Source of the DNA: a virus | IMG/VR virus record: IMGVR_UViG_3300045988_168338 | Reading direction: 5' to 3' (one strand) | DNA: 41,186 nucleotides | In this document: in pieces, positions 3,785-38,582 of the stretch | How the letters are laid out: every line of letters begins with the position of its first letter | How positions within the stretch are numbered: position 1 is the stretch's first letter | Position numbers and translations under genes: made by a program | The notes under the pieces: model-generated | The model's input: the letters and a program-made list of their open reading frames with translations, nothing else | Databases searched by the model: none | Told to the model about the DNA's origin: nothing

Positions 3785-5182
3785 ATGGGCATCACGATAG
3801 AGAATCTGCAGGTCGACGACCTGCACGCCAATCCAAACAATCCGCGCAAGCAGGTCGGCGACATCGACGAACTGGCGTCGAGCATCCGAAGCCAGGGCAT
3901 CAAACAGCCTTTATTGGTCACGCCGAACGGCGAGACGGACATCGACGGACACAAACAGTACCGCGTCGTCATCGGCCATCGCAGGCTCGCCGCGGCCAGA
4001 CAGTCGGGACTCTCGACCGTGCCCGCGATCGTCGAGGAGATGGACGCGCGCCGCGAACGCGAGATCATGCTCGTGGAGAACACGCAACGCTCCGACCTGA
4101 CTCCGATAGAGGAGGCCGACGGCTACCAAGGGCTTCTCGACCTGGGCGTGGGCGTCAAGGAGATGGCCGAGAAGACGGGACGCAGCGACCGTTTCGTCCG
4201 CAGACGGTTGAAGATAGCCAGAATCCCGCAGGAGACGCGCGACATGTCCGCCGATTTCAGCCAACTGTCGCTCGACCAGTTGGACAAGCTCGCCGAATTC
4301 GAATCCGACCCCGACATGCAACGCGAGCTCGCACGGTCCACAGACTTCGAATGGACGTACCGAACGCTCGTCAGCGAACGCGACAAGACGAAATGGCACG
4401 ACAAGGCGCTGAAGGCGCTCGCCAAAGCCGGAATCAAAGTCGAAAGCTTCCCCGACGGGAAAAACTTCTGGAACTGGCATCCGCACGGCTACAAGGCCGC
4501 CCACTCGTTCTCCGACATCAACTCGGACTTCTGGACCTCGTTCACCGGGGAATCCGACTGGCCGGAAGCCAGAGTGTACTCGTATGAATACTGGTTCTGC
4601 ACATACACGCCCATATCGGCCGACGAGCTCGAAAAAGACAAGGCCAAGACCGACAAGGACAATGCCATCAAGGCGCGAGGCAGGGAACTCAACCGACAGG
4701 CCCGCGAATTCGAAGCGATCGCCAAAGCCAACCGCACCGCATGGCTGAAAGGCAACCTCCATACGCTCACTCACGAACACGCGGAAACGGGAATATGCCG
4801 GCTCGCGCTCGCGGACACTGTCGGCTGGAGGAGCGTGTTCCCGTACCAGTCATACAAGGGCGAGGAAGTCATCAGGGAGCTGATCGCGTTCGGCTGGAGC
4901 CTGCCGATCACCGAGCATGACGACGAGCACTGGTCGCTGGAATGCAAGGAGAACCTCGACTCGATCCGCATGGTGCTGAAGGACAGGCCGCTTCGGATTC
5001 TCGATGTCCTGGCCGCCCGATGGGAGTCGAACATCGGCTGGAACTACTGGCGCTCGCGGCATGGCGTGGACGATATGTGTTGCTGGTACGACGTGCTGGA
5101 ACGTATCGGATATCGGGTCAGCGAGGACGAGAGGAAGGCGCTCAAGGGCGCGTACCTCGATGGAGGAGATGACGAATCATGA
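3785..5182 (+). CDS. ParB-like nuclease domain protein
   Basis: The N-terminus carries the ParB/Srx motifs: HANPNNPRK, IKQPLLV, VVIGHRRLAAA, VENTQRSDLTPIEEA. Confidence 0.85.
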   Translation: MGITIENLQVDDLHANPNNPRKQVGDIDELASSIRSQGIKQPLLVTPNGETDIDGHKQYRVVIGHRRLAAARQSGLSTVPAIVEEMDARREREIMLVENTQRSDLTPIEEADGYQGLLDLGVGVKEMAEKTGRSDRFVRRRLKIARIPQETRDMSADFSQLSLDQLDKLAEFESDPDMQRELARSTDFEWTYRTLVSERDKTKWHDKALKALAKAGIKVESFPDGKNFWNWHPHGYKAAHSFSDINSDFWTSFTGESDWPEARVYSYEYWFCTYTPISADELEKDKAKTDKDNAIKARGRELNRQAREFEAIAKANRTAWLKGNLHTLTHEHAETGICRLALADTVGWRSVFPYQSYKGEEVIRELIAFGWSLPITEHDDEHWSLECKENLDSIRMVLKDRPLRILDVLAARWESNIGWNYWRSRHGVDDMCCWYDVLERIGYRVSEDERKALKGAYLDGGDDES

Positions 5183-7257: not shown

Positions 7258-7535
7258 TGACAACGAAGGGAAAAACCACGAAGACCGTATCCAAGGAGAC
7301 ACGGCCGCGCAAATGGCGCAAACCAGTGCCATGCCCGACCTGCGGCAGCCGAAACATCAGATTCGACCCGTTTGCCCGGGCCGTCAACCGGAAAACATCC
7401 GCCATACGACAGTTCTGGGTATGCTCCTGCGAACGCCACGGCATCCTCATCCTCACCCGCCACGACGACCTCAAGGAAGCCATCCGCGCATGGAACAAGG
7501 AAGCCACCAGACAAGGAAGGAAACACTCGAAATGA
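7257..7535 (+). CDS. Lar-family (restriction alleviation-like) zinc-ribbon protein
   Basis: CPTCGS...CSC zinc ribbon and a C-terminal EAIRAWNK motif characteristic of the Lar family. Confidence 0.55.
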   Translation: MTTKGKTTKTVSKETRPRKWRKPVPCPTCGSRNIRFDPFARAVNRKTSAIRQFWVCSCERHGILILTRHDDLKEAIRAWNKEATRQGRKHSK

Positions 7536-7837
7536 GAAAACGCAAACCACTCGCACTCGCCGGCATCGGCCTGACCGCCATCACCATGTTCCTGCTCACA
7601 CCGGTATTCCTCCTCGCGCTCGCGGGATGCGGGAGCACGCCTCACGAGCCGGAGGATTCGACCACGGAATCCGCCACCCGGTCGCAGTGCAGCTCGGACT
7701 CCAGCAAATTCCAGACGTGCACGGTCACGATGCCGGACACGAGGCGCGTCACCTGCGTCTTCTACAACGGCTATACCGAAGCGTCCATGTCCTGCGACTG
7801 GGCGCACGCTGACGGCGCGGACAAGGTGGAGGACTGA
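7532..7837 (+). CDS. Lipoprotein
   Basis: Signal peptide with lipobox: MRKRKPLALAGIGLTAITMFLLTPVFLLALAGC. Confidence 0.7.
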   Translation: MRKRKPLALAGIGLTAITMFLLTPVFLLALAGCGSTPHEPEDSTTESATRSQCSSDSSKFQTCTVTMPDTRRVTCVFYNGYTEASMSCDWAHADGADKVED

Positions 7838-7839
7838 TC

Positions 7840-8037
7840 ATGGCCGTCACGAAACGCAAGGCGGAGATGGTCGTCACGTGGCACGAGCGCGGCGTCGACA
7901 TCGAGACAACATGCAGGATGCTCGGCGTCACCCCGCAGGAGGCGAGCGCGATCATCCGTCAGCACGCCGCGGAGCGGGAGCGTCGGGAGCGGGCGGAGCG
8001 CATGCGCCCGGAATTCATCGAACCGCCCATGTTCTAG
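7840..8037 (+). CDS. Small HTH-like protein
   Basis: IETTCRMLGVTPQEASAIIRQ looks like a helix-turn-helix, followed by a basic/acidic tail. Confidence 0.5.
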   Translation: MAVTKRKAEMVVTWHERGVDIETTCRMLGVTPQEASAIIRQHAAERERRERAERMRPEFIEPPMF

Positions 8038-8830: not shown

Positions 8831-8850
8831 CGGTAATACGCATAATGTGT

Positions 8851-9060
8851 ATGATAAGGGGTGTGAGGTTCAAGGAAATCGAGAAGATACTCCGCAAGGA
8901 CGGATGGCGACTCTACTCGCAGAGCGGAAGCCACTGCCAGTACACGCACCCCGACAAGCCCGGAAGGGTCACCGTCCCCAAACACAGCGGAGACCTCGCG
9001 CCCTTCACCGTCAGATCGATATGGAAACAAGCCGGAATCAACGAAAGAAGAATCAAATGA
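8851..9060 (+). CDS. hicA: HicA mRNA interferase toxin
   Basis: FKEIEKILRKDGWRLYSQSGSHCQYTHPDKPGRVTVPKHSGDLAPFTVRSIWKQAGI is a typical HicA. Alternative starts at 8845 and GTG 8863. Confidence 0.8.
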   Translation: MIRGVRFKEIEKILRKDGWRLYSQSGSHCQYTHPDKPGRVTVPKHSGDLAPFTVRSIWKQAGINERRIK

Positions 9061-9467
9061 AACTCGTCTACCCGGTCGTCCTCTACCCATCCGGCGTCCC
9101 CGGCGGGTACACCGTGCTCTGCCCCGACATGCCCGGCCTCGTCACCGAAGGCCGGAACCTGCCCGAAGCGCTCGACATGGCCGTGGACGCCGCCAGCGGT
9201 TGGGTGCTCGGCGAACTCGAGGAAGGACGCCACGAGCCGCGCGCCACCAACATCGCCGACGTGAAACCCGACGAACCGGGCGGCATCGTCACCCTCATCA
9301 GCCTCGACATGGACTCCTACGCCGAAAAATACGGCAGAAAATCAGTGCGCAAGAACGTCACTATCCCCGCATGGCTCGACACGTTCGGCGAACAGGCCGG
9401 AATCAACTACAGCCAAGTCCTGCGCGAAGGACTCGAACGCCGATACAACGACCTCCAAAACGCCTGA
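9057..9467 (+). CDS. hicB: HicB antitoxin
   Basis: ATGA overlap with hicA. N-terminal HicB fold motif (YPVVLYPSGVPGGYTVLCPDMPGLVTEGRNLPEAL) and a C-terminal RHH-like segment. Confidence 0.8.
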   Translation: MKLVYPVVLYPSGVPGGYTVLCPDMPGLVTEGRNLPEALDMAVDAASGWVLGELEEGRHEPRATNIADVKPDEPGGIVTLISLDMDSYAEKYGRKSVRKNVTIPAWLDTFGEQAGINYSQVLREGLERRYNDLQNA

Positions 9468-9468
9468 C

Positions 9469-9636
9469 ATGCCCACCCCGCAATTCACCGAATGGCACAC
9501 CGCCGAACATCTCGAAAACGAAGAAGACATCAGACTGTATCTGGACGCCTGCAAGGCATACGACGACCCGCGTCTGATGAGCTTCGCGCAGCGGGAAGCG
9601 GCCAAAGCGCGAGAAAACTTTTCCAGGCGGGAGTAG
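9469..9636 (+). CDS. Truncated addiction-module antidote (HigA-family N-terminal segment, no HTH)
   Basis: The 55-aa ORF TEWHTAEHLENEEDIRLYLDACKAYDDPRLMSFAQREAAKAR matches the conserved N-terminus of antidote proteins but ends before the HTH. Confidence 0.45.
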   Translation: MPTPQFTEWHTAEHLENEEDIRLYLDACKAYDDPRLMSFAQREAAKARENFSRRE

Positions 9637-9678
9637 GCTGCCGCCACCCCGTGGTATACTCCGTATCAGGATTAGTGT

Positions 9679-9713
9679 GAAAGCCCTAGGAGATGCGCTC
9701 TTCTAGGGCTTTC
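9679..9713. terminator. Bidirectional hairpin terminator
   Basis: Perfect 11-bp stem GAAAGCCCTAG / CTAGGGCTTTC between convergent genes. Confidence 0.6.
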
Positions 9714-9788
9714 GCATATCCAGCCACAAGGGTTCGGGGCGCTGCTGCTCAAGGCCTGCGAGCGCTTCGCGCGGACATTCGACGCGGG

Positions 9789-9992
9789 CTAGTCCGCGTG
9801 CTTGCGTGGCCTGCCTCCGCCGACGCCCCGACCGGGACGCTTCGCGTTCCATCCGTCTATCGTCTCCGGGAGCCAGCCGCGCGTGCGGCCTATCATGGCG
9901 TCGGGTTCGGGGAGCTTGAGGTTGAGCAGGCCGCCACTGGTTATGCCGAGGCGTTCGGCGACCTGCTTGACGCCGAGGTATTCAGTCGCCAT
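9789..9992 (-). CDS. HTH DNA-binding protein (Xis/AlpA-like), gene 3 of small-protein module 1
   Basis: SD GGAGGA then N6 then ATG 9992. YLGVKQVAERLGITSGGL...WLPETIDGW. Confidence 0.65.
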   Translation of the reverse strand: MATEYLGVKQVAERLGITSGGLLNLKLPEPDAMIGRTRGWLPETIDGWNAKRPGRGVGGGRPRKHAD

Positions 9993-10140
9993 CGTCGCTC
10001 CTCCAGCCCGCGAACAGACCGGCAAGCCCGGCGGCCACGGCGAATCCCGCAGCCCCGTAGGGTTGTCCCGCCGCCGCGAACATGGCGGATATGACGGCGA
10101 ACAGCATGCTCATGACGCCCAGTGTTCTTGATTTGCTCAT
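9982..10140 (-). CDS. 52-aa two-TM glycine-zipper-like membrane protein, gene 2 of module 1
   Basis: Below the cutoff of the ORF track. MSKSRTLGVMSMLFAVISAMFAAAGQPYGAAGFAVAAGLAGLFAGWRSDDGD. Its stop overlaps the start of 9789..9992. A paralog lies at 33589..33732. Confidence 0.5.
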   Translation of the reverse strand: MSKSRTLGVMSMLFAVISAMFAAAGQPYGAAGFAVAAGLAGLFAGWRSDDGD

Positions 10141-10170
10141 GATGTTCCATGGAATATAGGATTGGCGGAG

Positions 10171-10201
10171 GGGTTCCGGCTAATAGGTCTAGCCGGAACC
10201 C
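10171..10201 (-). terminator. Intercistronic hairpin (attenuator or terminator) in module 1
   Basis: Perfect 12-bp stem GGGTTCCGGCTA / TAGCCGGAACCC immediately after the stop of 10205..10333. Confidence 0.5.
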
Positions 10202-10204
10202 GTT

Positions 10205-10333
10205 TTACTTCTTCCTGCGTTTCCGCTTGGACCGGCCCTTCTTGTCGGGCTTGTCCCTGCGGACCTCGACCCAGATGGTCACCGCTATGGCGGCCCAGCT
10301 GGTGATGAGTTGCATCCAATCCTTGAGTTCCAT
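10205..10333 (-). CDS. 42-aa single-TM protein with a polybasic tail, gene 1 of module 1
   Basis: Strong SD GGAAAGGAGGTGAAC then ATG 10333. MELKDWMQLITSWAAIAVTIWVEVRRDKPDKKGRSKRKRRKK. A paralog lies at 33800..33946. Confidence 0.55.
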   Translation of the reverse strand: MELKDWMQLITSWAAIAVTIWVEVRRDKPDKKGRSKRKRRKK

Positions 10334-10348
10334 GTTCACCTCCTTTCC

Positions 10349-10388
10349 TTGGTCGATATATCTATAGTGATATAATTACTATAGATAT
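10349..10388 (+). promoter_or_regulatory. Candidate promoter with extended -10 and an overlapping 11-bp inverted repeat (divergent control region)
   Basis: TTGGTC (10349-54), 16-nt spacer, then TGaTATAAT (10368-76). The inverted repeat ATATCTATAGT (10358-68) / ACTATAGATAT (10378-88) brackets the -10. Confidence 0.5.
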
Positions 10389-10443
10389 GCAAGGCGGGAG
10401 CACAACGACACGCCGACCACGACGGTGGAGAGAGGTGGATGCC

Positions 10444-10812
10444 ATGCCCTCCGTGAGCCGACGCGAGCGCTGGTACACCAGCGACAGGCGGTACCGGCTG
10501 CCCTCCGACTGGGGGCGGCGCAAGGCCGCCGTCCGAGCACGCGCACACGGCAGATGCCAGGCCGCCAGCCACGCCCCCGGATGCAACGGGGTGGGTACGG
10601 AGTGCGACCACATCGTCGCCGGCGACGACCACGACCTCGACAACCTTCAATGGCTGTCGCACGAATGCCACAAAGCCAAGACCGAGCGGGAGAACGCCGA
10701 ACGCAACCGGCGGCGCAAGCTCATGAGACTGCATCCGAGCGAAAGACAACCCGGACTGCTAGACTGGACGCCACGCCGGGTGGGAGGGGACTCCCCGGCG
10801 ACACCGGTATAA
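10444..10812 (+). CDS. HNH endonuclease (packaging-associated)
   Basis: ...RCQAASHAPGCNGVGTECDHIVAGDDHDLDNLQWLSHECHKAKT. SD GGAGAGAGGTGG upstream. Sits upstream of the terminase genes, as in HK97-like cos phages. Confidence 0.85.
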   Translation: MPSVSRRERWYTSDRRYRLPSDWGRRKAAVRARAHGRCQAASHAPGCNGVGTECDHIVAGDDHDLDNLQWLSHECHKAKTERENAERNRRRKLMRLHPSERQPGLLDWTPRRVGGDSPATPV

Positions 10813-10849
10813 CCGCCGGATAGCACCTCCGGTTGTGCATGCGCCTGGA

Positions 10850-11050
10850 ATCCCCGTTTTTCCTCCTGCGTCGTTTTCCGCCGGTCTTGTCCCGTTCGCC
10901 CCTCCCGTGGCCGTTTCCTCGGCTCGCTGGGGCCTTCCACGTTCGCGCGACGCTTTCCTCGCCGTCCGTCTTTCACCTCTTCAAGCCATGTCACGTTATG
11001 AATAAAACGTTGGAATATGGCCGTTATATTGTTTTTTAAGCGATGTCACG
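10850..11050. other. Pyrimidine-strand-biased repeat region, candidate cos/terminase recognition region
   Basis: Five CG(T/C)TTTCC-like motifs and two ATGTCACG repeats (10988, 11043) in an AT-rich patch between the HNH gene and the terminase genes. Confidence 0.35.
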
Positions 11051-32114: not shown

Positions 32115-32540
32115 ATGGCAAACATCAGCGGCGTGGCCGACCACAAGGCCACCGGCCCGGCGATTCCCGGCCTGACCGTGGAACGCACCAAGGCGATCAT
32201 CCTGCTCATCGTCCAATTATTCAGCGTCGCGCAGACCGGCCTGAGCATCGCCGGCATCAGCCAGCTCCCGTTCACCACCGATCAGGTGAGCACGGCGATC
32301 ACCGGCGTCATCGCCGTCATCGCATCCGTGTACGCGTGGTGGCGCAACAACAACCTGACCGGTGCCGCCGTGCAGGGACAGCAGCTCACCAACGCGATCA
32401 AAGCCAATATCATCGCCACCGCCACCGACGCCACGACCGGGACAGCTCAGGCGGCCTACGCGGTGTCCGACTCCAGGGGAGCCGACGCGACCGCTGACGT
32501 GGCACCCATCGAGGAGGTGTCCTATGGCGACGGCGAGTGA
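32115..32540 (+). CDS. Holin
   Basis: SD TAAGGAGAAC. TM segments AIILLIVQLFSVAQTGLSIAGI and AITGVIAVIASVYAWW, then the RNNNLTGAA motif. Immediately upstream of the endolysin. Confidence 0.8.
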   Translation: MANISGVADHKATGPAIPGLTVERTKAIILLIVQLFSVAQTGLSIAGISQLPFTTDQVSTAITGVIAVIASVYAWWRNNNLTGAAVQGQQLTNAIKANIIATATDATTGTAQAAYAVSDSRGADATADVAPIEEVSYGDGE

Positions 32541-33339
32541 AGTCCTGCGCATCGCGGCGGGCGAAATCGGCTATTCCCGTTGGACCGACCCGCAGCCGGG
32601 CACGAAGTACGGGCGCTGGTACGCCCAATCCCACGGCTCCTACTATGGCGCGTCGGGCGTCCCGTTCTGCGCGATGTTCGTCAGCTGGGTCATGAGCCGT
32701 GCCGGTCAGGCGTTCCCGGGACTGCCCGCCGCCTACGTGCCATACGTGCTCAGCGCGGGACGCTCCCGCGCGGTCAGCACGCGCAGCGCCCGCCCCGGCG
32801 ACATCGTGATATTCAACTGGGACGGCGGCGTGGTGGACCACATCGGCTTCGTGGAAGCCAACCACGGCTCGTACATCCAGACCATCGAGGGCAACACCAA
32901 CAACGGGCGCGTAGCACGCCGCACCCGCGCATGGAACACCATCGCCGCCATCCTGCGCCCCGCCTACAGTGGCAGCGCCACGTCGTCCGGCGGCGGCACG
33001 GGCCGGCTCACGGTAGACGGCTCCTGCGGGCCGGCCACCATCCGCCGCTGGCAGCAGGTCATGGGCACCAGCGTGGACGGCATCATCAGCGGCCAGTACA
33101 GGCCGGACGGCCGGACATGGGGCCGACCCGCGCTCGTGGACTCGTGCGTGCGCTACGGTGGCGGCGGATCCAACCTCATCCGCGCCGTCCAACGCAAGCT
33201 CAGCCTCACCGCGGACGGGCTCCTCGGCCCCGCCACCATCCGTGCCCTGCAGAAACACCTCGGCGTCGCGCAGGACTCGTGGTTCGGACCCGGCACCGCA
33301 CGCGCACTCCAAAGCCGCCTCAACACCGGCAGATTCTAA
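32524..33339 (+). CDS. Endolysin: CHAP amidase/peptidase plus two peptidoglycan-binding repeats
   Basis: CHAP triad context (VPFCAMFVSW, VVDHIGFV, IEGNTN). C-terminal LTVDGSCGPATIRRWQ and LTADGLLGPATIRALQ repeats. Confidence 0.85.
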   Translation: MATASEVLRIAAGEIGYSRWTDPQPGTKYGRWYAQSHGSYYGASGVPFCAMFVSWVMSRAGQAFPGLPAAYVPYVLSAGRSRAVSTRSARPGDIVIFNWDGGVVDHIGFVEANHGSYIQTIEGNTNNGRVARRTRAWNTIAAILRPAYSGSATSSGGGTGRLTVDGSCGPATIRRWQQVMGTSVDGIISGQYRPDGRTWGRPALVDSCVRYGGGGSNLIRAVQRKLSLTADGLLGPATIRALQKHLGVAQDSWFGPGTARALQSRLNTGRF

Positions 33340-33343
33340 ACAC

Positions 33344-33384
33344 AAGCGCCCCTCGGCTCCATGCATAGGAGTCGAGGGGCGCTT
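33344..33384. terminator. Bidirectional terminator
   Basis: 12-bp stem AAGCGCCCCTCG / CGAGGGGCGCTT between convergent genes. Confidence 0.65.
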
Positions 33385-33397
33385 CTGCATATCTGCG

Positions 33398-33592
33398 TCA
33401 GAGGCGGGACTCGAACTCGTCGATCGTCATCTCGAGCGCGTCCGCCACTCTTCTGGCCGTGCCGAGCGCCATGAGCCTCGGGTCGCGCACGCCCCTGACC
33501 CACTCGTTGACCCGCTGTCTGGTAAGTCCGGCGGCGCGCGCGATCTGCGACTGCCGTATCCCCCGTTCATCCAGCATATCCGCGAACGTCAT
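33398..33592 (-). CDS. XRE-family HTH protein, gene 3 of small-protein module 2
   Basis: SD GGAGG upstream of ATG 33592. MLDERGIRQSQIARAAGLTRQRVNEWVRG. Confidence 0.75.
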   Translation of the reverse strand: MTFADMLDERGIRQSQIARAAGLTRQRVNEWVRGVRDPRLMALGTARRVADALEMTIDEFESRL

Positions 33593-33732
33593 CCGTTCCG
33601 CCTCCCCGCCAGGTATCCGAGCGTCCCGGCGCACAGCGCCAGCACGCCTGCCGGTATCGAGTGTCCGGACAGCCCGGCGGCGAACGCGCCGAGCGCCATG
33701 ACCAGCGAGCATAATCCCAGTCTGTCGTTCAT
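33589..33732 (-). CDS. 47-aa two-TM glycine-zipper-like membrane protein, gene 2 of module 2
   Basis: MNDRLGLCSLVMALGAFAAGLSGHSIPAGVLALCAGTLGYLAGRRNG. ATGA overlap with the HTH gene. Paralog of 9982..10140. Confidence 0.5.
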   Translation of the reverse strand: MNDRLGLCSLVMALGAFAAGLSGHSIPAGVLALCAGTLGYLAGRRNG

Positions 33733-33759
33733 GATGTCCCATGCGATAGGATGGGAGCC

Positions 33760-33794
33760 GGGCCTTCCGGATAGTTGGGATATTCGGAAGGCCC
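33760..33794 (-). terminator. Intercistronic hairpin in module 2
   Basis: 10-bp stem GGGCCTTCCG / CGGAAGGCCC, in the same position as the 10171-10201 hairpin of module 1. Confidence 0.5.
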
Positions 33795-33799
33795 TTTCC

Positions 33800-33946
33800 T
33801 CACCGCCTGCGCCGCCTCCGTGGCGGCCTGCGCGGTTCGGGCTTCCGGTGGAGGGCAATCACCACCGTGGCTATGGGTGCTATGACCGCCCCGAGCCCGG
33901 CGAGAAATTCGCCCGCCGCCTTCAGCAGCTCCGTGACCTGTTGCAT
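33800..33946 (-). CDS. 48-aa single-TM protein with a poly-Arg tail, gene 1 of module 2
   Basis: Shares the identical 21-nt start context with module 1 (CATGTTCACCTCCTTTCCTTG on the + strand). MQQVTELLKAAGEFLAGLGAVIAPIATVVIALHRKPEPRRPPRRRRRR. Confidence 0.55.
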   Translation of the reverse strand: MQQVTELLKAAGEFLAGLGAVIAPIATVVIALHRKPEPRRPPRRRRRR

Positions 33947-33975
33947 GTTCACCTCCTTTCCTTGCCGACTCCTCC

Positions 33976-34004
33976 ATTGTAACCCAAACGGGTTACAATG
34001 TCAA
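33976..34004 (-). promoter_or_regulatory. Canonical sigma70-type promoter of module 2 with an overlapping palindromic operator
   Basis: Minus strand reads TTGACA (33999-34004), 17-nt spacer, TACAAT (33976-81). An 11-bp inverted repeat CATTGTAACCC/GGGTTACAATG (33975-34000) spans the spacer and -10. Confidence 0.6.
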
Positions 34005-34009
34005 GCCGG

Positions 34010-34533
34010 AGGAACCCCGACACACCGTATCCACACCATTCTCGGCACCCTATTTTTGCCCACATTTTGCCCACATTCTCACGGAAAAACAGGGTGAACA
34101 GGGAAAAACGGATAAACAAAAAAGCCCCTCAGCCTGAACCGCACCCCGATTGTTGGACTGAAGAAATTCAGATTCGATGATCGGAGGTGCGGTTCACAAT
34201 GCTGGGGGAGGGGCCTTTTCTTGTTTCGGGTGATATCATACGGAGCAAACAGCAGATTGGAGTCGGTTCTGAGTGGCATTTGAGTGACATTGAAACGCGG
34301 AGCCAACCACGAGAACGCATTGTTGCGCGTCAGGCTATAACCACCGTTGATACGCGCCACCTTGCGCAGGGGTGGCGCTGAACCGTTGGAATACTGCGGA
34401 AACGTAGACGGCAGTAAGGCTTGTATGACGTCGTGCGCGCGTGACGCTGATACGAGTTTTCCCGCCGAAAACGGCGTTTTACGCCCACTTAGAGTGTGAT
34501 TTAGAGTGGACTCCCTGACACGGGAGGACAGTC
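34010..34533. other. attP-containing region (core not identified) with arm-type repeats and a compound hairpin
   Basis: Low-GC non-coding stretch upstream of int. Tandem TTTGCCCACAT x2 (34055-76), AACAGGG x2, TTAGAGTG x2 (34489-34508), and a rod hairpin at 34118-34219. Confidence 0.4.
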
Positions 34534-35754
34534 ATGGCGGGCAAGACGAAAAACAGGAGGACCGGGGGATCCGGAAGCGTGTTCCAGGACTCCAAAGGAC
34601 GATGGCACTTCCGCAAGGACATGGGAACCGACCCGGCGACCGGACGCAGACGCCCGCCGATCGAAGCCACCGGCATGGTGAAAAGCGAGGCGCGCGCCCG
34701 CTTCCAGGCGAAGATAGCGGAATGGGAACGGGACGGAAGACTCCCCAGCAAGGACGGCCCCAAGACCGCTGACTACTTCGAACGGTGGATGGGGGAGCAC
34801 CGGGCGGCCATCAATCCCACCACATGGCGCAACGAATCCAGCTGGATGCGCACCATGAACGCGATCATCGGCGACATACGCCTCAACCGGCTCACCGCCA
34901 ACGACATCAACGGAATGTGCAGGAGACTGCGCCGCACACGCAAAAGCAAGACCGTCAACACCTATCTCGCAGTCCTCGGCGCCATGCTCCGAACCGCGAA
35001 ACGGGACGGACTCATCGCCGACGACCCGATGGAAAACGTCGGACGAATGCCGGAGGACCGGTACGAACGCCCCATCCTCGACGTCGCCGACCCAGCGAAG
35101 GTCATCGAGGCCGCGCTCGCCGAGCCCGATCCGGCGGTCGCCGTGTTCGACAGCCCGGACGAGCGTGAGAAGTGGGCACTCATGTTCGAACTCGCCTTCA
35201 CCACGGGCATGCGGCCGGGGGAGAGGTATGGCCTGATGCCCTACCAGCTGGAACTGCATCATGGGATTCCCGTCATCAACGTGTGCCAGCAGGCCAAGCC
35301 GATACCAGCCGGCGCCACGATCCCGGATTGGATGGAAGCCGAGCATCTGGATGGGGCGATCTGGCTGACCAAACCGAAGACCGCCAAAGGCGTGCGGACG
35401 GTTCCCATTCCGCAGGGGCTTTGGGACCGGCTTTGGGCGCATATCGTCAAATGGGGCGTGCCATCGCATGGACTGGTGTTCACCAATCTTTACGGCCATC
35501 CCATCAGACGGGACAACGAGGAGAAGCGTTGGCGCCGCGCCCTGAAGATGGCGGGACTGCCGTACGTCGACATCTACAGCGCGCGGCACTGGCTCGCCAC
35601 CGAACTCGCCGCCGCCGGCGCGAGCGACGAGGAGCGCACCGCCATCATGGGCCACACCGACATCCACACCACCAGCGTCTACACGCATTGGAGGGAACGG
35701 CGACTCGCCGAAACGCTCGACGCCGCCCTGCCAGACCTCCGCGACGGCCAGTGA
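34534..35754 (+). CDS. int: Tyrosine integrase
   Basis: Catalytic motifs: TGMRPGE, ...ARHWLATEL..., MGHTDIHTTSVYTHW (R-H-R-Y). Confidence 0.95.
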   Translation: MAGKTKNRRTGGSGSVFQDSKGRWHFRKDMGTDPATGRRRPPIEATGMVKSEARARFQAKIAEWERDGRLPSKDGPKTADYFERWMGEHRAAINPTTWRNESSWMRTMNAIIGDIRLNRLTANDINGMCRRLRRTRKSKTVNTYLAVLGAMLRTAKRDGLIADDPMENVGRMPEDRYERPILDVADPAKVIEAALAEPDPAVAVFDSPDEREKWALMFELAFTTGMRPGERYGLMPYQLELHHGIPVINVCQQAKPIPAGATIPDWMEAEHLDGAIWLTKPKTAKGVRTVPIPQGLWDRLWAHIVKWGVPSHGLVFTNLYGHPIRRDNEEKRWRRALKMAGLPYVDIYSARHWLATELAAAGASDEERTAIMGHTDIHTTSVYTHWRERRLAETLDAALPDLRDGQ

Positions 35755-35819: not shown

Positions 35820-35843
35820 GAAGACGAAAGCAAGGAGGTGCCG

Positions 35844-36371
35844 ATGTCGAAGATTACCATCGATAATCTGTCCACGCCGGCTGCAGCGGCGACGGAGACG
35901 CTACTGAAGACAGTCGCGCCTAACGGTTACCTCAACCTTCCCGTGGATCCGTCACGCGTGGCAGAGCTACTGGGCATCCAGCCGCAGAAGCTCATGCTGG
36001 ATCCAAACGTTGACGGCCTGCTCGTCAAAGACAAGTCCGGCGAGCCGTTCAAGGCGGTCTCCGATGCGTATGCTTCGCCGCAGCGTCAGCGGTTCACCAC
36101 AGCCCATGAGATAGGTCACTGGGTCCATAAATACCAGAACACGCCGGACGATGCCGTGCTCGGAAGGGTGGAGAGCCGCGACGACACTTCGTCCAAGGGA
36201 ATCGATCCCGAGGAGATCTGGGCGAATCGTTTTGCCGCCGCGCTCCTGATGCCTGCCGCGATAGTCAGACGCCATTGGGGTGAAGGGCGCACCCGCGACG
36301 AGCTGGCCGAGATGTTCGGTGTCTCCCGACGATCCATGGACGTGAGAATAGCCACCCTGGGGTTGCAATGA
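35844..36371 (+). CDS. ImmA/IrrE-family (COG2856) zinc metallopeptidase
   Basis: HExxH: TTAHEIGHWV, with a downstream ...EIWANRFAAALLMPA motif. Confidence 0.8.
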   Translation: MSKITIDNLSTPAAAATETLLKTVAPNGYLNLPVDPSRVAELLGIQPQKLMLDPNVDGLLVKDKSGEPFKAVSDAYASPQRQRFTTAHEIGHWVHKYQNTPDDAVLGRVESRDDTSSKGIDPEEIWANRFAAALLMPAAIVRRHWGEGRTRDELAEMFGVSRRSMDVRIATLGLQ

Positions 36372-36859
36372 GCCAAACCGAACAGGCATCCAGCGAAACC
36401 GATGAGGCGCTGGCCATGTTCAACAGGGCGTCGGCCGCCACCTCGCATGTGCCGGTCGCGCACGGTTCCGCACCCGACGGCGGGGAAGGAGTCGATGGTT
36501 CCGCAGATGAGGCCACAGGTACAGCCTCATCATTCAACGCCCGACGGAGAGAGAACGCCGCTCTCCGCAAACTCGATGCGAAAAACACGAGACGCGAACA
36601 AGAGAACCAGCTGCGCAAGGAAGTGGCGACCTGGTCACTATGGTTCGTGCTGACACAGCTCGTGATAACGAATACGACCATCGTCGCGTACATTGTCACC
36701 ATGCTTGTGCTGAAACAGTACGTGCCGACCGAAGTGCTGATTACATGGCTGTCATCGACGATCGTGGAGATCATCGGCATCCTCTGGGTCATCGCACGCA
36801 GCCTCTTCCCGTTCCACGACAGACACCGCGACACTAAAGGCGAAAAACACAAGTCGTAA
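36368..36859 (+). CDS. Membrane protein (acidic/disordered N-terminus, three C-terminal TM helices)
   Basis: ATGA overlap with 35844..36371. TM segments WSLWFVLTQLVITNTTIVAYIVTMLVL and VLITWLSSTIVEIIGILWVIA. Confidence 0.7.
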   Translation: MSQTEQASSETDEALAMFNRASAATSHVPVAHGSAPDGGEGVDGSADEATGTASSFNARRRENAALRKLDAKNTRREQENQLRKEVATWSLWFVLTQLVITNTTIVAYIVTMLVLKQYVPTEVLITWLSSTIVEIIGILWVIARSLFPFHDRHRDTKGEKHKS

Positions 36860-36922: not shown

Positions 36923-37429
36923 CTACTGCGCGCACACGCCGGAATCGTACAATAACTGCCGGTAGTCCTCCAACACCTGGATGGTGACACCCAATTCCAC
37001 GGCCATCATCCACGCATTGCCCTCGTACACCGTCTCGGCCATGCCGTAATCCACCGGACTGATCAACGCCAGCGCCGTCTCCCTACGGCAACGGCGCTCG
37101 CATTTGATTCCGTATTGGCTGCCGCATCCGGGGTCGTGGTGTCTGGCGTGTATGAGTTCGTGGCACAATGTGCAGCGGCGCTGGCGTTGGTTGAGTCTGT
37201 CATGGAGGAATATAGTGCGGCTCGCCTCATACCATGCGCCGCACAGTCCGTCCGGCAACGGTTGCTCGACGATGCGGATGTGTTCCTTCCCGGCGTGGTC
37301 GAGGAAGGAGCCGAGGTCGTATCCGCCGGGGATATGAAACAACCCAGCCTGGTTCGCCGCGCCGAAGACGCTCGCGTGCTGGGTACTGTCGATGCTCAGA
37401 CTACCCGTTTGCCGTGACCTCCTTTGCAT
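36923..37429 (-). CDS. ImmA/IrrE-family zinc metallopeptidase (second copy)
   Basis: HExxH: CTLCHELIHARHHD. The start is uncertain (ATG 37429 chosen; the ORF is open to 37642). Confidence 0.7.
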   Translation of the reverse strand: MQRRSRQTGSLSIDSTQHASVFGAANQAGLFHIPGGYDLGSFLDHAGKEHIRIVEQPLPDGLCGAWYEASRTIFLHDRLNQRQRRCTLCHELIHARHHDPGCGSQYGIKCERRCRRETALALISPVDYGMAETVYEGNAWMMAVELGVTIQVLEDYRQLLYDSGVCAQ

Positions 37430-37553
37430 GGTGTCGGCTGGTGTGCGCAAGCCCGTCCTATGTGGATGGCGGCTGGGTTCCCGAATGGGAGTAAGACTTC
37501 GGGTCGAGAATTCCTTTGCCCCTGGGGCCGGACTTGCCTCCTCGCCGGCTGTC

Positions 37554-38582
37554 TCATCTGCCGATTCCGTCGTGGCGGCCTCCGTCGATGCCCTTGGCGA
37601 ATTCCTCGAAGTCGTATGGTTGCGCCGCGTTGAACTTCGCATATTCCTCGGCGGCCTTCCTGTCCGCCTGCTTGCGGGTCACGGTGCCTTTGCCGGTGAG
37701 CGTCGCGCCTCCCGAAAGCTGGATGTATTGGCTTACGAGTTGGATGAATTCCGGCATGGTGGTGGTCAGTCGCGCCGCGACCCTGTTCTCGATCATGTCG
37801 AGGAAGCCGCTGGTGAGACGGTTGAGCCGCGTCAGCTCGTTCTCGTCCAGGTAGTTCTTGGCGACGGTCACATCGGATTTGTGGATTCGCCCGTTGGGGG
37901 AGCCATGCCATGTGGTCAGTCCCATGTGCGGTTTCGTGGCGTCGACGCGTTGGGTGATGATCTCCGGCGCGGTGTGCCCGTGGGCGGCGTAGTGGAACCT
38001 GTTCTGCATGTTCTGGTAGAACTCGCGCGCGATGCCGCTGTCCTTGTCGTAGTCGGTGCAGATCTCCTGGAATATGGCGAGCACCTGCTGGTAGAGGCGT
38101 TTCTCGCTGGTGCGGATCTCCCGTACTCGGGCGAGGAGCTCCTTGAAGTAGTCCTCGCCGAACGTGTTGCCGTTCTTGAGCATGTCGTCGTTGAGAGCGA
38201 AGCCCTTGATCATGTATTCGTGCAGCACGCTGGTCGCCCATTGGCGGAAGGCCGTGGCCTGCGGGCTGCTGACCCTGTATCCGACGGCGATGATCGCGTC
38301 CAGGCTGTAGAAGCGGATGGTGCGGCGAACCGTTCTGCCGCCTTCGTTTCGAACTATTTCCATTTCCGACATAGTTGCCGATTCGGCCAACTCGCCTTCA
38401 GCGTAGATGTTCGCCAGATGTTTGGATACCGCGGGCACGTTCACGCCGAATAGTCGCGCGATGTTCTTCTGCGGCATCCAGAACGTCCGCCGCCAGTACG
38501 TGACCTCGACCGGCACGTTCACCCCATTGGCGCGGTAGAGGATCACCTGCCCTCTGTTATCAGGGTCGAATTCCTCGCTCAT
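37554..38582 (-). CDS. RhuM-family (Fic/DOC-related) protein
   Basis: ...FWMPQKNIARLFGVNVPAVSKHLANIY...IRFYSLDAIIAVGYRVSSPQATAFRQWATSVLHEYMIKGF... is typical of the RhuM virulence-protein family. Confidence 0.85.
   Translation of the reverse strand: MSEEFDPDNRGQVILYRANGVNVPVEVTYWRRTFWMPQKNIARLFGVNVPAVSKHLANIYAEGELAESATMSEMEIVRNEGGRTVRRTIRFYSLDAIIAVGYRVSSPQATAFRQWATSVLHEYMIKGFALNDDMLKNGNTFGEDYFKELLARVREIRTSEKRLYQQVLAIFQEICTDYDKDSGIAREFYQNMQNRFHYAAHGHTAPEIITQRVDATKPHMGLTTWHGSPNGRIHKSDVTVAKNYLDENELTRLNRLTSGFLDMIENRVAARLTTTMPEFIQLVSQYIQLSGGATLTGKGTVTRKQADRKAAEEYAKFNAAQPYDFEEFAKGIDGGRHDGIGR

Follow-up and report, generated by a model that had tools for sequence, protein, structure and literature searches.

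A recurrent cassette encoding two very small membrane proteins and a helix-turn-helix regulator in prophages of bifidobacteria

Two very small predicted membrane proteins, a hairpin, and a helix-turn-helix (HTH) protein are encoded together at positions 9789 to 10333 of a viral DNA of 41,186 nt (IMG/VR record IMGVR_UViG_3300045988_168338; the whole analyzed stretch is here called the window), and the same arrangement recurs at 33398-33946. The locus raises the question of whether this cassette is a genuine genetic unit, how it is controlled, and what it does. A first-pass annotation made from the sequence alone had listed both copies, and all of its coordinates and sequences were confirmed, including the perfect 12-bp hairpin of copy 1 and the recurrence as copy 2. 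The window is a Bifidobacterium bifidum prophage, and the cassette is real, widespread, and previously undescribed; the first-pass annotation knew of no system with this layout, and none emerged from Pfam, PHROGs, NCBIfam, PADLOC, or the literature, in which we found no description of it. Our preferred interpretation, to which we give a probability of about 50%, is that the cassette encodes an effector and its partner, both membrane proteins under tight autoregulation, with a role in superinfection exclusion, abortive infection, or addiction.

Both copies lie on the minus strand. Copy 1 begins with a promoter/operator region (10360-10392), read directly, in which a -35 element, TTGCAT (10387-10392), is separated by a 17-nt spacer from a -10 element, CACTAT (10364-10369), whose weakness explains why the promoter was missing from the consensus scan. 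A perfect palindrome, ATCTATAGT-N9-ACTATAGAT (10360-10386), stretches across the spacer and the -10 element. The leader (10334-10351) contains an extended Shine-Dalgarno (SD) sequence, and its GAAAGGAGGTGA is what we take to be a 12-nt complement of the 3' tail of 16S rRNA. Gene 1 (10205-10333) encodes 42 amino acids with an acidic N terminus, one transmembrane (TM) helix, and the polybasic tail RRDKPDKKGRSKRKRRKK (net charge, +9). Its stop codon is followed after 3 nt by the hairpin (10171-10201; 12-bp stem, 7-nt loop). Gene 2 (9982-10140), which has no SD sequence of its own, encodes a two-TM hairpin protein of 52 amino acids with a Gly/Ala zipper (38% Gly plus Ala) and an acidic C terminus. 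Overlapping it by 11 nt, gene 3 (9789-9992) encodes a winged HTH protein of 67 amino acids, the proposed autoregulator.

In copy 2, the promoter/operator region (33976-34004) combines TTGACA, a 17-nt spacer, and TACAAT (11 of 12 consensus positions) with the perfect palindrome TTGTAACCC-N4-GGGTTACAA (33977-33998). Gene 1 (33800-33946; 48 amino acids) again encodes a TM helix and a charged tail, RKPEPRRPPRRRRRR, and precedes a hairpin, GGGCCTTCCGaATA...TATCCGGAAGGCCC (33760-33794), whose stem is compensated relative to that of copy 1. Gene 2 (33589-33732) encodes a two-TM Gly/Ala protein of 47 amino acids that is homologous to its counterpart in copy 1, and gene 3 (33398-33592) overlaps it in an ATGA and encodes an XRE/Cro-C1-type HTH protein of 64 amino acids. 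From the distribution of charges, we predict an N-out/C-in orientation for the gene 1 product, whose tail of +8 to +9 would be cytoplasmic, and a helical hairpin with both ends in the cytoplasm for the gene 2 product.

The 20-mer AAGGAAAGGAGGTGAACATG of the shared leader was used to collect further cassettes. It heads at least 119 cassettes in IMG/VR (exact matches in at least 119 contigs), and downstream of nearly every match we found the same layout of a gene 1 open reading frame (ORF), hairpin, junction, gene 2 ORF, and overlapping HTH gene. In these cassettes, gene 1 encodes 34 to 48 amino acids with an acidic N terminus, one hydrophobic helix, and a tail of R/K-x-P plus basic residues; the hairpin is GC rich and starts 3 to 5 nt past the gene 1 stop codon; and gene 2 encodes a Gly/Ala-rich two-TM protein of 46 to 55 amino acids. 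Gene 1 falls into at least 10 sequence families (A, A', B, C, C2, D, E, E', F, and G), copy 1 belonging to E and copy 2 to A'. The cassette is one of the most recurrent small units in bifidobacterial prophages.

Substitution patterns within these families show that both small ORFs are subject to purifying selection in the proposed frames. The ratio of nonsynonymous to synonymous polymorphism (pN/pS) was 0.26 for gene 1 and 0.33 for gene 2 of family B, 0.28 for gene 1 of family A, and 0.19 to 0.27 for gene 2 of families E and E', against about 1 or more in the other two frames. In gene 1 of family E', all 10 substitutions fell on third codon positions. The conservation of reading frames in related phages, which had been named earlier as a check, was thus borne out (pN/pS, 0.19 to 0.33). 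The GC content at third codon positions was 0.76 to 0.86 in the small ORFs (0.86 and 0.80 for gene 1 of copies 1 and 2) and similar in the long genes of the phage (0.82 to 0.90). An alternative frame from the first ATG of the junction ('M(E/G)HHE...', fused to the HTH gene in copy 2) was rejected because its register relative to genes 2 and 3 is not conserved (in families C, E', and F and part of D it is in frame, in families E, A, A', and B it is not) and because pN/pS in the alternative frames is about 1 or higher.

The first-pass annotation had regarded a shared 21-mer and a shared junction as similar start contexts of the two copies. Both motifs are there: the 21-mer CAAGGAAAGGAGGTGAACATG occurs exactly twice in the window (10331-10351 and 33944-33964; none expected in shuffles), and the junction CATGGRACATCATGA is found at 10137-10151 and 33729-33743. 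Folding and covariation, however, indicate that the two motifs pair with each other in a long-range RNA helix, each supplying one strand. The folded transcripts ran from the approximate start site to a point shortly beyond the gene 2 AUG. In the minimum free energy (MFE) structures of nine family representatives, GGUG-AA-CAUGGAA... at the start of gene 1 pairs with ...UUCCAUG-GAA-CAUC directly 5' of the gene 2 AUG, so that the SD/AUG region of gene 1 pairs with the 25 to 35 nt before the gene 2 AUG and gene 1 and the hairpin are enclosed. In copy 1, the 5' strand (10315-10340: GGUG, CAUGGAA, GGAUUGG) comprises the 3' part of the SD sequence, the AUG, and codons 2 to 6 of gene 1; the 3' strand (10141-10165: CCAAUCC, UUCCAUG, CAUC) includes the junction motif and abuts the gene 2 AUG. 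In copy 2, 33930-33953 (GGUG..CAUGC..) pairs with 33733-33757 (..GCAUG..CAUC). The helix was present in both the MFE and the centroid structures of the two window copies (z = -5.9 for copy 1 and -4.1 for copy 2 against dinucleotide shuffles). Pairing reaches the first codons, as GGAUUGG/CCAAUCC in copy 1 (the 'ATCCTA' motif) and as AUCGGAGAUAA/AUAUCUCCGAU in family B.

Sequence variation among families is consistent with this pairing. The mean duplex energy of cognate 5' and 3' segments was -26.6 kcal/mol, compared to -20.4 kcal/mol for noncognate ones. In a set of 20 variants in register, 87% of the helix cells were paired, against 26 to 46% when the partners were slid by 1 to 3 columns; five pairs were changed on both sides, and none of 500 shuffles reached the covariation score. 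The pair formed by nucleotide +4 of gene 1 is G-C in families E, A, C, and F, A-U in D, and C-G in A' (copy 2), and the GTG that replaces the ATG at the junction of family E' can be explained by retention of a U.G pair in the RNA helix. Family G has an independent leader, GGAGGUAUCCGAUG, and junction, UCAUCGGAG, in which the helix is preserved and the MFE structure is the same fold-back. At position -1 of gene 1, the pair is C-G in 22 sequences and G-C in 5 (a double change, in family G), with 27 of 27 paired. These compensatory changes support the predicted helix across ten families. The central hairpin is separately conserved, with compensatory changes in 6 of its 11 stem pairs across families; it was rejected as a canonical intrinsic terminator of the sense strand, as no U-run follows. 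The predicted RNA architecture of the cassette is unusual and well supported.

The second layer of control suggested by the sequences is transcriptional. Both operator palindromes are unique in the window (for copy 1, none is expected by chance). Across all of the approximately 140 cassettes scored, the operator class corresponds one to one to the recognition-helix motif of gene 3, with six or more classes: P1 goes with TSGGLLNLK, P1' with TPGGLLNLK, P2 with STAAVSAYK, P2b with ANAASYD, P2c with KTGALATYK, P2d with TKGALARYK, and P3 with an XRE protein. The two classes in the window, P1 and P3, are both palindromic. The gene 1/gene 2 family, in turn, varies freely with respect to operator class (D occurs with P1, P1', P2, and P2b, whereas the families combined with P1 are E, A, D, and G). 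That the operator tracks the recognition helix independently of the gene 1/gene 2 family argues for autoregulation, and the gene 3 product is most likely a repressor of the cassette promoter. Variation in the HTH protein is concentrated in the N-terminal half, on the gene 2 side, and the C-terminal half with RPGRGVGGGRPRK hardly varies at all. Helix and promoter would therefore not stay matched under simple homologous exchange, and selection for matched operator/HTH pairs is the simpler explanation.

The different HTH families claimed for the two copies were corroborated. Gene 3 of copy 2 scored 35.4 bits with Pfam HTH_3 (cutoff, 23 bits; E = 1.1e-8). Gene 3 of copy 1 did not match the Pfam families HTH_17/MerR but matched phrog_597 (E = 3e-25), and its AlphaFold2 model (mean predicted local distance difference test score, 81) has the layout H-H-beta-beta-H, that is, an HTH, a beta-hairpin wing, and a helix. 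The top Foldseek matches were winged HTH proteins of the MerR superfamily throughout, namely, RacA, BmrR, NmlR, BldC, RdfS, and the Pukovnik Xis, all of them weak (E = 0.09 to 1.4; 0.7 to 1.4 for RdfS and Pukovnik Xis). Residues 52 to 67 form a low-confidence Gly/Arg tail in the model, and the coiled-coil/effector domain of the MerR family is absent. The model thus presents the protein as a stand-alone MerR/excisionase-like DNA-binding domain. Its predicted fold without an effector domain resembles that of BldC, the RacA N-domain, Pukovnik Xis, and RdfS. It differs from them in the invariant AT-hook-like tail RPGRGVGGGRPRK, in the weakness of the structural matches (E of at least 0.09), and in that its apparent target is the palindrome of its own promoter and not attP or a regulon.

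The two small proteins appear to belong together. Each gene 1 family is strictly paired with a gene 2 family of its own, and this suggests that the two products are specific physical partners. Loss of or damage to gene 1, with retention of the hairpin, gene 2, and the HTH gene, was seen at loci L125/L126 and L157 (where it is truncated) and possibly at L133 (fused) and in the Gardnerella locus L139 (in-frame TAA stop). No cassette without gene 2 was found among approximately 160 unique cassettes. This asymmetric loss, together with the layered control acting on gene 1, fits a costly or harmful gene 1 component with gene 2 as its partner. As for the replacement at L125 (5671-7343) and L126 (Bifidobacterium chromosome CP018044), a gene for a 412-amino-acid GmrSD_N protein (type IV restriction-like) occupies the place of the cassette promoter and gene 1. 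It has an AT-rich upstream region of its own, and the cassette hairpin, gene 2, and HTH gene lie directly downstream, adjoining the integrase.

Taken together, we propose that each copy is an autonomous prophage accessory operon under several levels of control. A near-consensus promoter of the sigma-70 type is overlapped by an operator, and the HTH protein from the last gene, whose recognition helix covaries with that operator, most likely represses this promoter. The short leader provides a maximal SD sequence for gene 1. Once the junction has been transcribed, the SD sequence, AUG, and first codons of gene 1 could pair just upstream of the SD-less gene 2 AUG, closing gene 1 and the hairpin into one RNA domain; gene 3, in turn, overlaps the gene 2 stop codon. 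Such a fold-back would restrict translation of gene 1 to nascent or opened mRNA, and initiation at gene 2 would be tied to the state of the gene 1 start site, either by unmasking or by placement of the sole SD sequence beside the gene 2 AUG. The amount of HTH protein made, and through it the activity of the promoter, would then reflect how far the operon is translated. The single-pass polybasic peptide and the two-TM glycine-zipper hairpin would form a cognate membrane pair in which gene 1 supplies an effector that may be harmful and gene 2 its partner or neutralizer. The pay-off would be a membrane function at the level of the lysogen, such as superinfection exclusion, abortive infection, or addiction. 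The membrane-acting toxin or exclusion unit suggested in the first-pass annotation is still the best guess.

Several features are of the kind seen in conflict or accessory genes: sites at the lysin-att region, near integrases, and at the early/late boundary; the opposite strand; an own promoter and terminator-like hairpins; at most two differently specified copies per phage; many families; and HicAB, GmrSD, and TIR neighbors. At least 10 peptide families and six or more regulator/operator specificities likewise form a pattern typical of conflict systems. T4 Imm and Sp, HK97 gp15, lactococcal Sie2009, and Streptococcus thermophilus Ltp are comparable as small membrane proteins encoded by independently transcribed prophage genes, and the cassettes share classic conversion sites with such exclusion proteins (copy 2 in the lysin-att region and the type B cassette of phage Bbif-1 between the integrase and the immunity region). 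In contrast to these proteins, with which they share no homology, the cassette proteins are smaller (30 to 55 amino acids) and form a two-protein cognate pair with a dedicated autoregulator and an RNA fold-back. Type II toxin-antitoxin systems also resemble the cassette in their compact operon, their HTH autorepressor acting on a palindrome that overlaps the promoter, their overlapping stop and start codons, their paralogous copies of different specificity, and their accessory location on mobile elements. However, the HTH gene here is the last one and not obviously an antidote, the candidate toxin is a membrane peptide and not a soluble enzyme, and there are three genes instead of two.

We tentatively entertain, as a possibility of lower standing, a more specific version in which the cassette is a new three-part system of membrane toxin, partner, and regulator, with an RNA switch that lets two cistrons share one maximal SD sequence. 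As long as the mRNA is nascent and open, the toxic polybasic peptide would be made; on folded mRNA, the gene 1 AUG would be buried and the SD sequence would lie beside the SD-less gene 2 AUG, and translation of gene 2 would deliver the autorepressor. Phage-phage conflict in Bifidobacteriaceae would have shaped the diversified gene 1/gene 2 pairs as variants of differing specificity. Precedents for a downstream start region paired with a distant upstream sequence, which makes its translation dependent on what happens at the upstream cistron, are the MS2 coat-replicase arrangement and the split ribosome-binding site of T4 gene 38, with which the placement of the sole SD sequence beside the second AUG by the closed helix may be compared. 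Unlike in these cases, the upstream strand in the cassette is itself the initiation region of gene 1, and the mechanism is deduced from structure prediction and covariation.

Some observations weigh against the effector/partner reading or the control proposed for it. Genes 1 and 2 gave nothing significant in Pfam, PHROGs, NCBIfam, PADLOC, or PDB-sequence searches, and so showed no homology there to known exclusion, toxin, or defense proteins. Likewise, the cassette matched no toxin-antitoxin family in Pfam or NCBIfam, and among the PADLOC defense models, gene 1, gene 2, and the copy 1 HTH protein found no match and the copy 2 HTH protein only weak XRE-type ones. The losses of gene 1 are few (3 to 5 events). 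Regarding the RNA, the shuffle control overstates the significance of the helix because the fold-back was derived from the same related sequences; A.C mismatches are about as frequent in it as G.U pairs; its assignment to the sense RNA, and not to DNA or an antisense RNA, depends mainly on the invariant G.U in GGUG/CAUC; and the Gardnerella relative at L139 is not predicted to form it. Finally, promoter class also correlates with prophage position, so that the promoter-HTH linkage could partly reflect lineage instead of function.

The best-surviving alternative, which we still consider unlikely, is a type I-like toxin-antitoxin or addiction module. Gene 1 would then be a toxin in the style of Hok, Fst, or Ldr whose mRNA is kept inert by a 5'-3' fold-back and released by processing, or is controlled by an unseen antisense RNA, with gene 2 and the HTH gene as accessories. 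The size and design of gene 1 fit type I toxins (below 50 amino acids, one TM helix, charged C terminus), and its SD/AUG is sequestered by the predicted long-range pairing. Sequestration of this kind by a long-range interaction occurs in the hok and aapA1 mRNAs. Like the cassette, hok/sok and other type I toxin mRNAs, such as Helicobacter pylori aapA1, encode a tiny membrane peptide with a charged end, pair its SD/AUG with sequence downstream of the ORF, and link translation between overlapping or adjacent frames. The persistence of gene 2 and the HTH gene after loss of gene 1 would also suit such a toxin. In the cassette, however, a second, coevolving membrane-protein gene supplies the 3' strand of the helix with its start region, and both this protein partner and the protein autoregulator within the operon are foreign to type I systems. 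Sequence homology is lacking as well: in Pfam scans of all gene 1 families, no match to a type I toxin such as Hok, Fst, Ldr, TisB, or Ibs was obtained. As to an antisense RNA, none was detected in the sequence, and although a T-rich run follows the copy 1 hairpin on the antisense strand, it is not conserved, being a by-product of Lys codons that is absent in Arg-tailed families. Consensus scans found no antisense promoter. A candidate in the 'ATCCTA'/junction motif was rejected, with no consistent -35 element by eye and none in promoter scans, and the conservation of this motif is accounted for by its role as the 3' strand of the sense-strand helix.

Clearly less probable is an excision or regulatory switch in which gene 3 is a phage Xis or a Cro-like regulator and the peptides are incidental. 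The predicted excisionase/MerR winged-HTH fold of copy 1 gene 3, the name 'AlpA family' among its relatives, and the position of the commonest cassette type (B), which adjoins the integrase about 1.3 kb from contig ends, would agree with this. But the window phage carries two copies with different DNA specificities, one of them with an XRE protein, and copy 1 lies 24 kb from the integrase. A window-wide motif search located the operators only at the cassettes' own promoters and none near attP; in phage Bbif-1, the closest resemblance to the P2 spacer elsewhere was a palindrome with 3 mismatches, which is uninformative on this point. In addition, purifying selection and coevolution of the peptides speak against an incidental role.

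The holin-like switch raised in the first-pass annotation, that is, a lysis-timing device in which genes 1 and 2 are a holin/antiholin or pinholin-like pair, fared slightly worse and is very doubtful. Copy 2 does adjoin the lysis cassette, and a TM helix with a basic tail and a two-TM glycine zipper resemble small holins, yet the only holin match (PHROG family phrog_1350; E = 0.18) was not significant. Moreover, an SPP1-type holin and an endolysin are already encoded separately by the phage on the other strand, while the cassettes stand on the opposite strand under a promoter of their own that is probably autoregulated, at three different genome positions and in no more than two copies per phage.

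Gene 1 could also be imagined as a leaderless cationic bacteriocin-like peptide, with gene 2 as its membrane immunity protein beside a regulator. The peptide is cationic, contains Trp, and has no leader, the two genes pair family by family, and small two-TM proteins are typical bacteriocin immunity proteins. We nevertheless hold this to be highly improbable, since no exporter is found in or near the cassette, no homology to known families was detected, and the charges are so distributed that a membrane anchor whose tail is cytoplasmic is predicted, not an amphipathic secreted peptide. Least credible of all is a DNA-level element whose complementary blocks are inverted repeats of an invertible or mobile mini-cassette and not RNA strands: imperfect inverted repeats do flank gene 1, promoter/HTH frames have swapped the gene 1/gene 2 segments that they enclose, and gene 1 is replaced at the hairpin in L125 and L157, but there is no associated recombinase, none of more than 160 cassettes is in inverted orientation, the arms coincide with the SD/AUG and with the region where gene 2 starts, and genes 1 and 2 travel as one and not separately. 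Moreover, the helices include conserved G.U pairs that would be mismatches in DNA (19 of 20 sequences have them in GGUG/CAUC; the GUG variant of E' is a further case).

Returning to the cassette as a proposed membrane effector/partner operon, its named hosts are all Bifidobacterium or Gardnerella. A gene 2 profile retrieved 119 protein clusters, of which the named ones are all from Bifidobacterium and none carries a Pfam domain; an exhaustive profile search of 1.84 billion representatives yielded just 52, including Gardnerella and one labeled 'small integral membrane protein [Caudoviricetes]'. The copy 1 HTH protein has 309 relatives, the named ones again all from Bifidobacterium and labeled 'Gp28 phagic protein', 'helix-turn-helix transcriptional regulator', or 'AlpA family', and a relative is encoded at no fewer than 405 IMG/VR loci. 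In species-representative genomes, the 20-mer had 9 matches, and cassettes were confined to Bifidobacteriaceae and three short contigs; matches in Nitrospirota and Chloroflexia were rejected as lying in unrelated genes. The three contigs (L134, L133, and L136) carry typical bifidophage cassettes and were binned as metagenome-assembled genomes of Collinsella, Senegalimassilia, and Anaerovoracaceae, probably by binning errors instead of reflecting a wider host range. The first-pass annotation had proposed to look for the conserved unit in actinobacterial prophages; the unit does recur, but the family appears to be restricted to prophages of Bifidobacteriaceae (Bifidobacterium and Gardnerella) and not to extend to Actinobacteria generally. 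Every context inspected was a prophage, with cassettes at the early-gene/HNH-terminase boundary, on the integrase side, or beside HicAB, GmrSD, or ThsB-TIR genes, and a tblastn comparison of the collected loci with the proteins of the window phage showed that the majority of the phages with a cassette are only distant kin of it.

Bifidobacteria have a key place in the infant gut. Prophages are common in them and are frequently induced, and the accessory genes that these express are barely known. With about 600 bp, the cassette offers a compact test case for how very small membrane proteins are controlled, how long-range mRNA pairing may couple two cistrons of which the second lacks a ribosome-binding site, and how an operator and its repressor remain matched when the genes that lie between them are exchanged.

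The small ORFs had been expected to escape routine annotation, which is partly true. The copy 1 genes are already present as hypothetical proteins in the GenBank record of Bifidobacterium phage Bbif-1 (GQ141189), namely, BBP_0945 (5.3 kDa), BBP_0946 (5.2 kDa), and BBP_0947 ('g28 phagic protein'). Gene callers, however, had overlooked gene 1 (30 to 48 amino acids) in several of the assemblies examined, from genomes as well as metagenomes, and the family is therefore underannotated. In a BLAST comparison with phage records, positions 9300-11000 of the window were 98.8% identical to Bbif-1, in reverse orientation. The Bbif-1 record (L002) also holds a third cassette type at 37824-38361, of family B with a P2 promoter and adjoining its integrase, which is not in the window; profile hidden Markov models of genes 1, 2, and 3 found only the two copies there. 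At the corresponding position, the window has a gene for an ImmA/IrrE-type peptidase (35838-36371) and a 163-amino-acid ORF with a hydrophobic C-terminal part (36368-36859). In Bbif-1, the divergent intergenic region of the immunity region (34463-34500) contains an inverted pair, TACTTAATTGAGTA/TACTCAATTAAGTA, which resembles the P2 spacer at 3 mismatches and is probably the operator of the phage repressor.

Both cassettes are indeed opposite in strand to their neighbors and have their own promoter, as described before, but the earlier statement that late genes flank them is inexact. Copy 1 has the end of the early region on one side (a HicA/HicB pair and a 55-amino-acid ORF, all on the plus strand) and the HNH/terminase genes on the other; copy 2 lies between the endolysin gene (32362-33339) and the attP/integrase region (integrase, 34534-35754). 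The layout would be compatible with moron-style expression in a lysogen. Endolysin gene, copy 2, and integrase gene are contiguous (33339-34534), which indicates that the window is a circularly joined genome, excised or virion derived, whereas the Bbif-1 record terminates at the endolysin and integrase genes.

Among the neighboring features, HicA toxin (8848-9060, plus strand; Pfam E = 4e-23) and HicB-like antitoxin (9057-9467, plus strand) genes directly adjoin copy 1 and represent a second accessory toxin-antitoxin unit at the early/late boundary; the 55-amino-acid ORF after HicB (9469-9636, plus strand) had no Pfam match. Between this ORF and the convergent gene 3 of copy 1, a GC-rich hairpin was read directly (9679-9713); it is absent from the terminator-scan list and is a possible bidirectional terminator without a T-run. 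Where gene 3 of copy 2 and the endolysin gene converge, a terminator-like hairpin, GCGCCCCTCG...CGAGGGGCGC followed by TTGTGTTT (33346-33382), was likewise read directly between them. In the whole window, no Rfam family matched at its gathering score, and a tRNA scan was also empty. The presumed attP region contains a tandem direct repeat of two ATGTGGGCAAA units (approximately 34054-34076, in minus-strand reading) together with T-rich tracts. The lysogeny-control region carries, on the minus strand, an ORF for an IrrE/M78-like peptidase (36923-37642) and a RhuM-family gene (37554-38582; Pfam E = 2e-97). As listed, these two overlap by about 90 nt, so one of the start codons is probably located further downstream.

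Two relatives of the cassette depart from the common form. A variant at L127 (6760-7974) has a different leader, a gene 1 of only 30 amino acids (MDNIWTAISSIASAVSAIAAVIAIIQNRKR), and, alone among the variants, a gene 2 with its own SD sequence, and no fold-back was predicted for it. Downstream on the same strand lies a gene for a ThsB-like TIR-domain protein (7513-7974), and an unrelated gene of 280 amino acids occupies the same spot at L128. At L139, a metagenome contig of Gardnerella type, two copies of the 28-nt CRISPR-like repeat GGATCACCCCCGCGTATGCGGGAAAGAC, separated by a 33-nt spacer (4665-4753), are found just upstream of the cassette relative; they may represent a mini CRISPR array in a mobile element.

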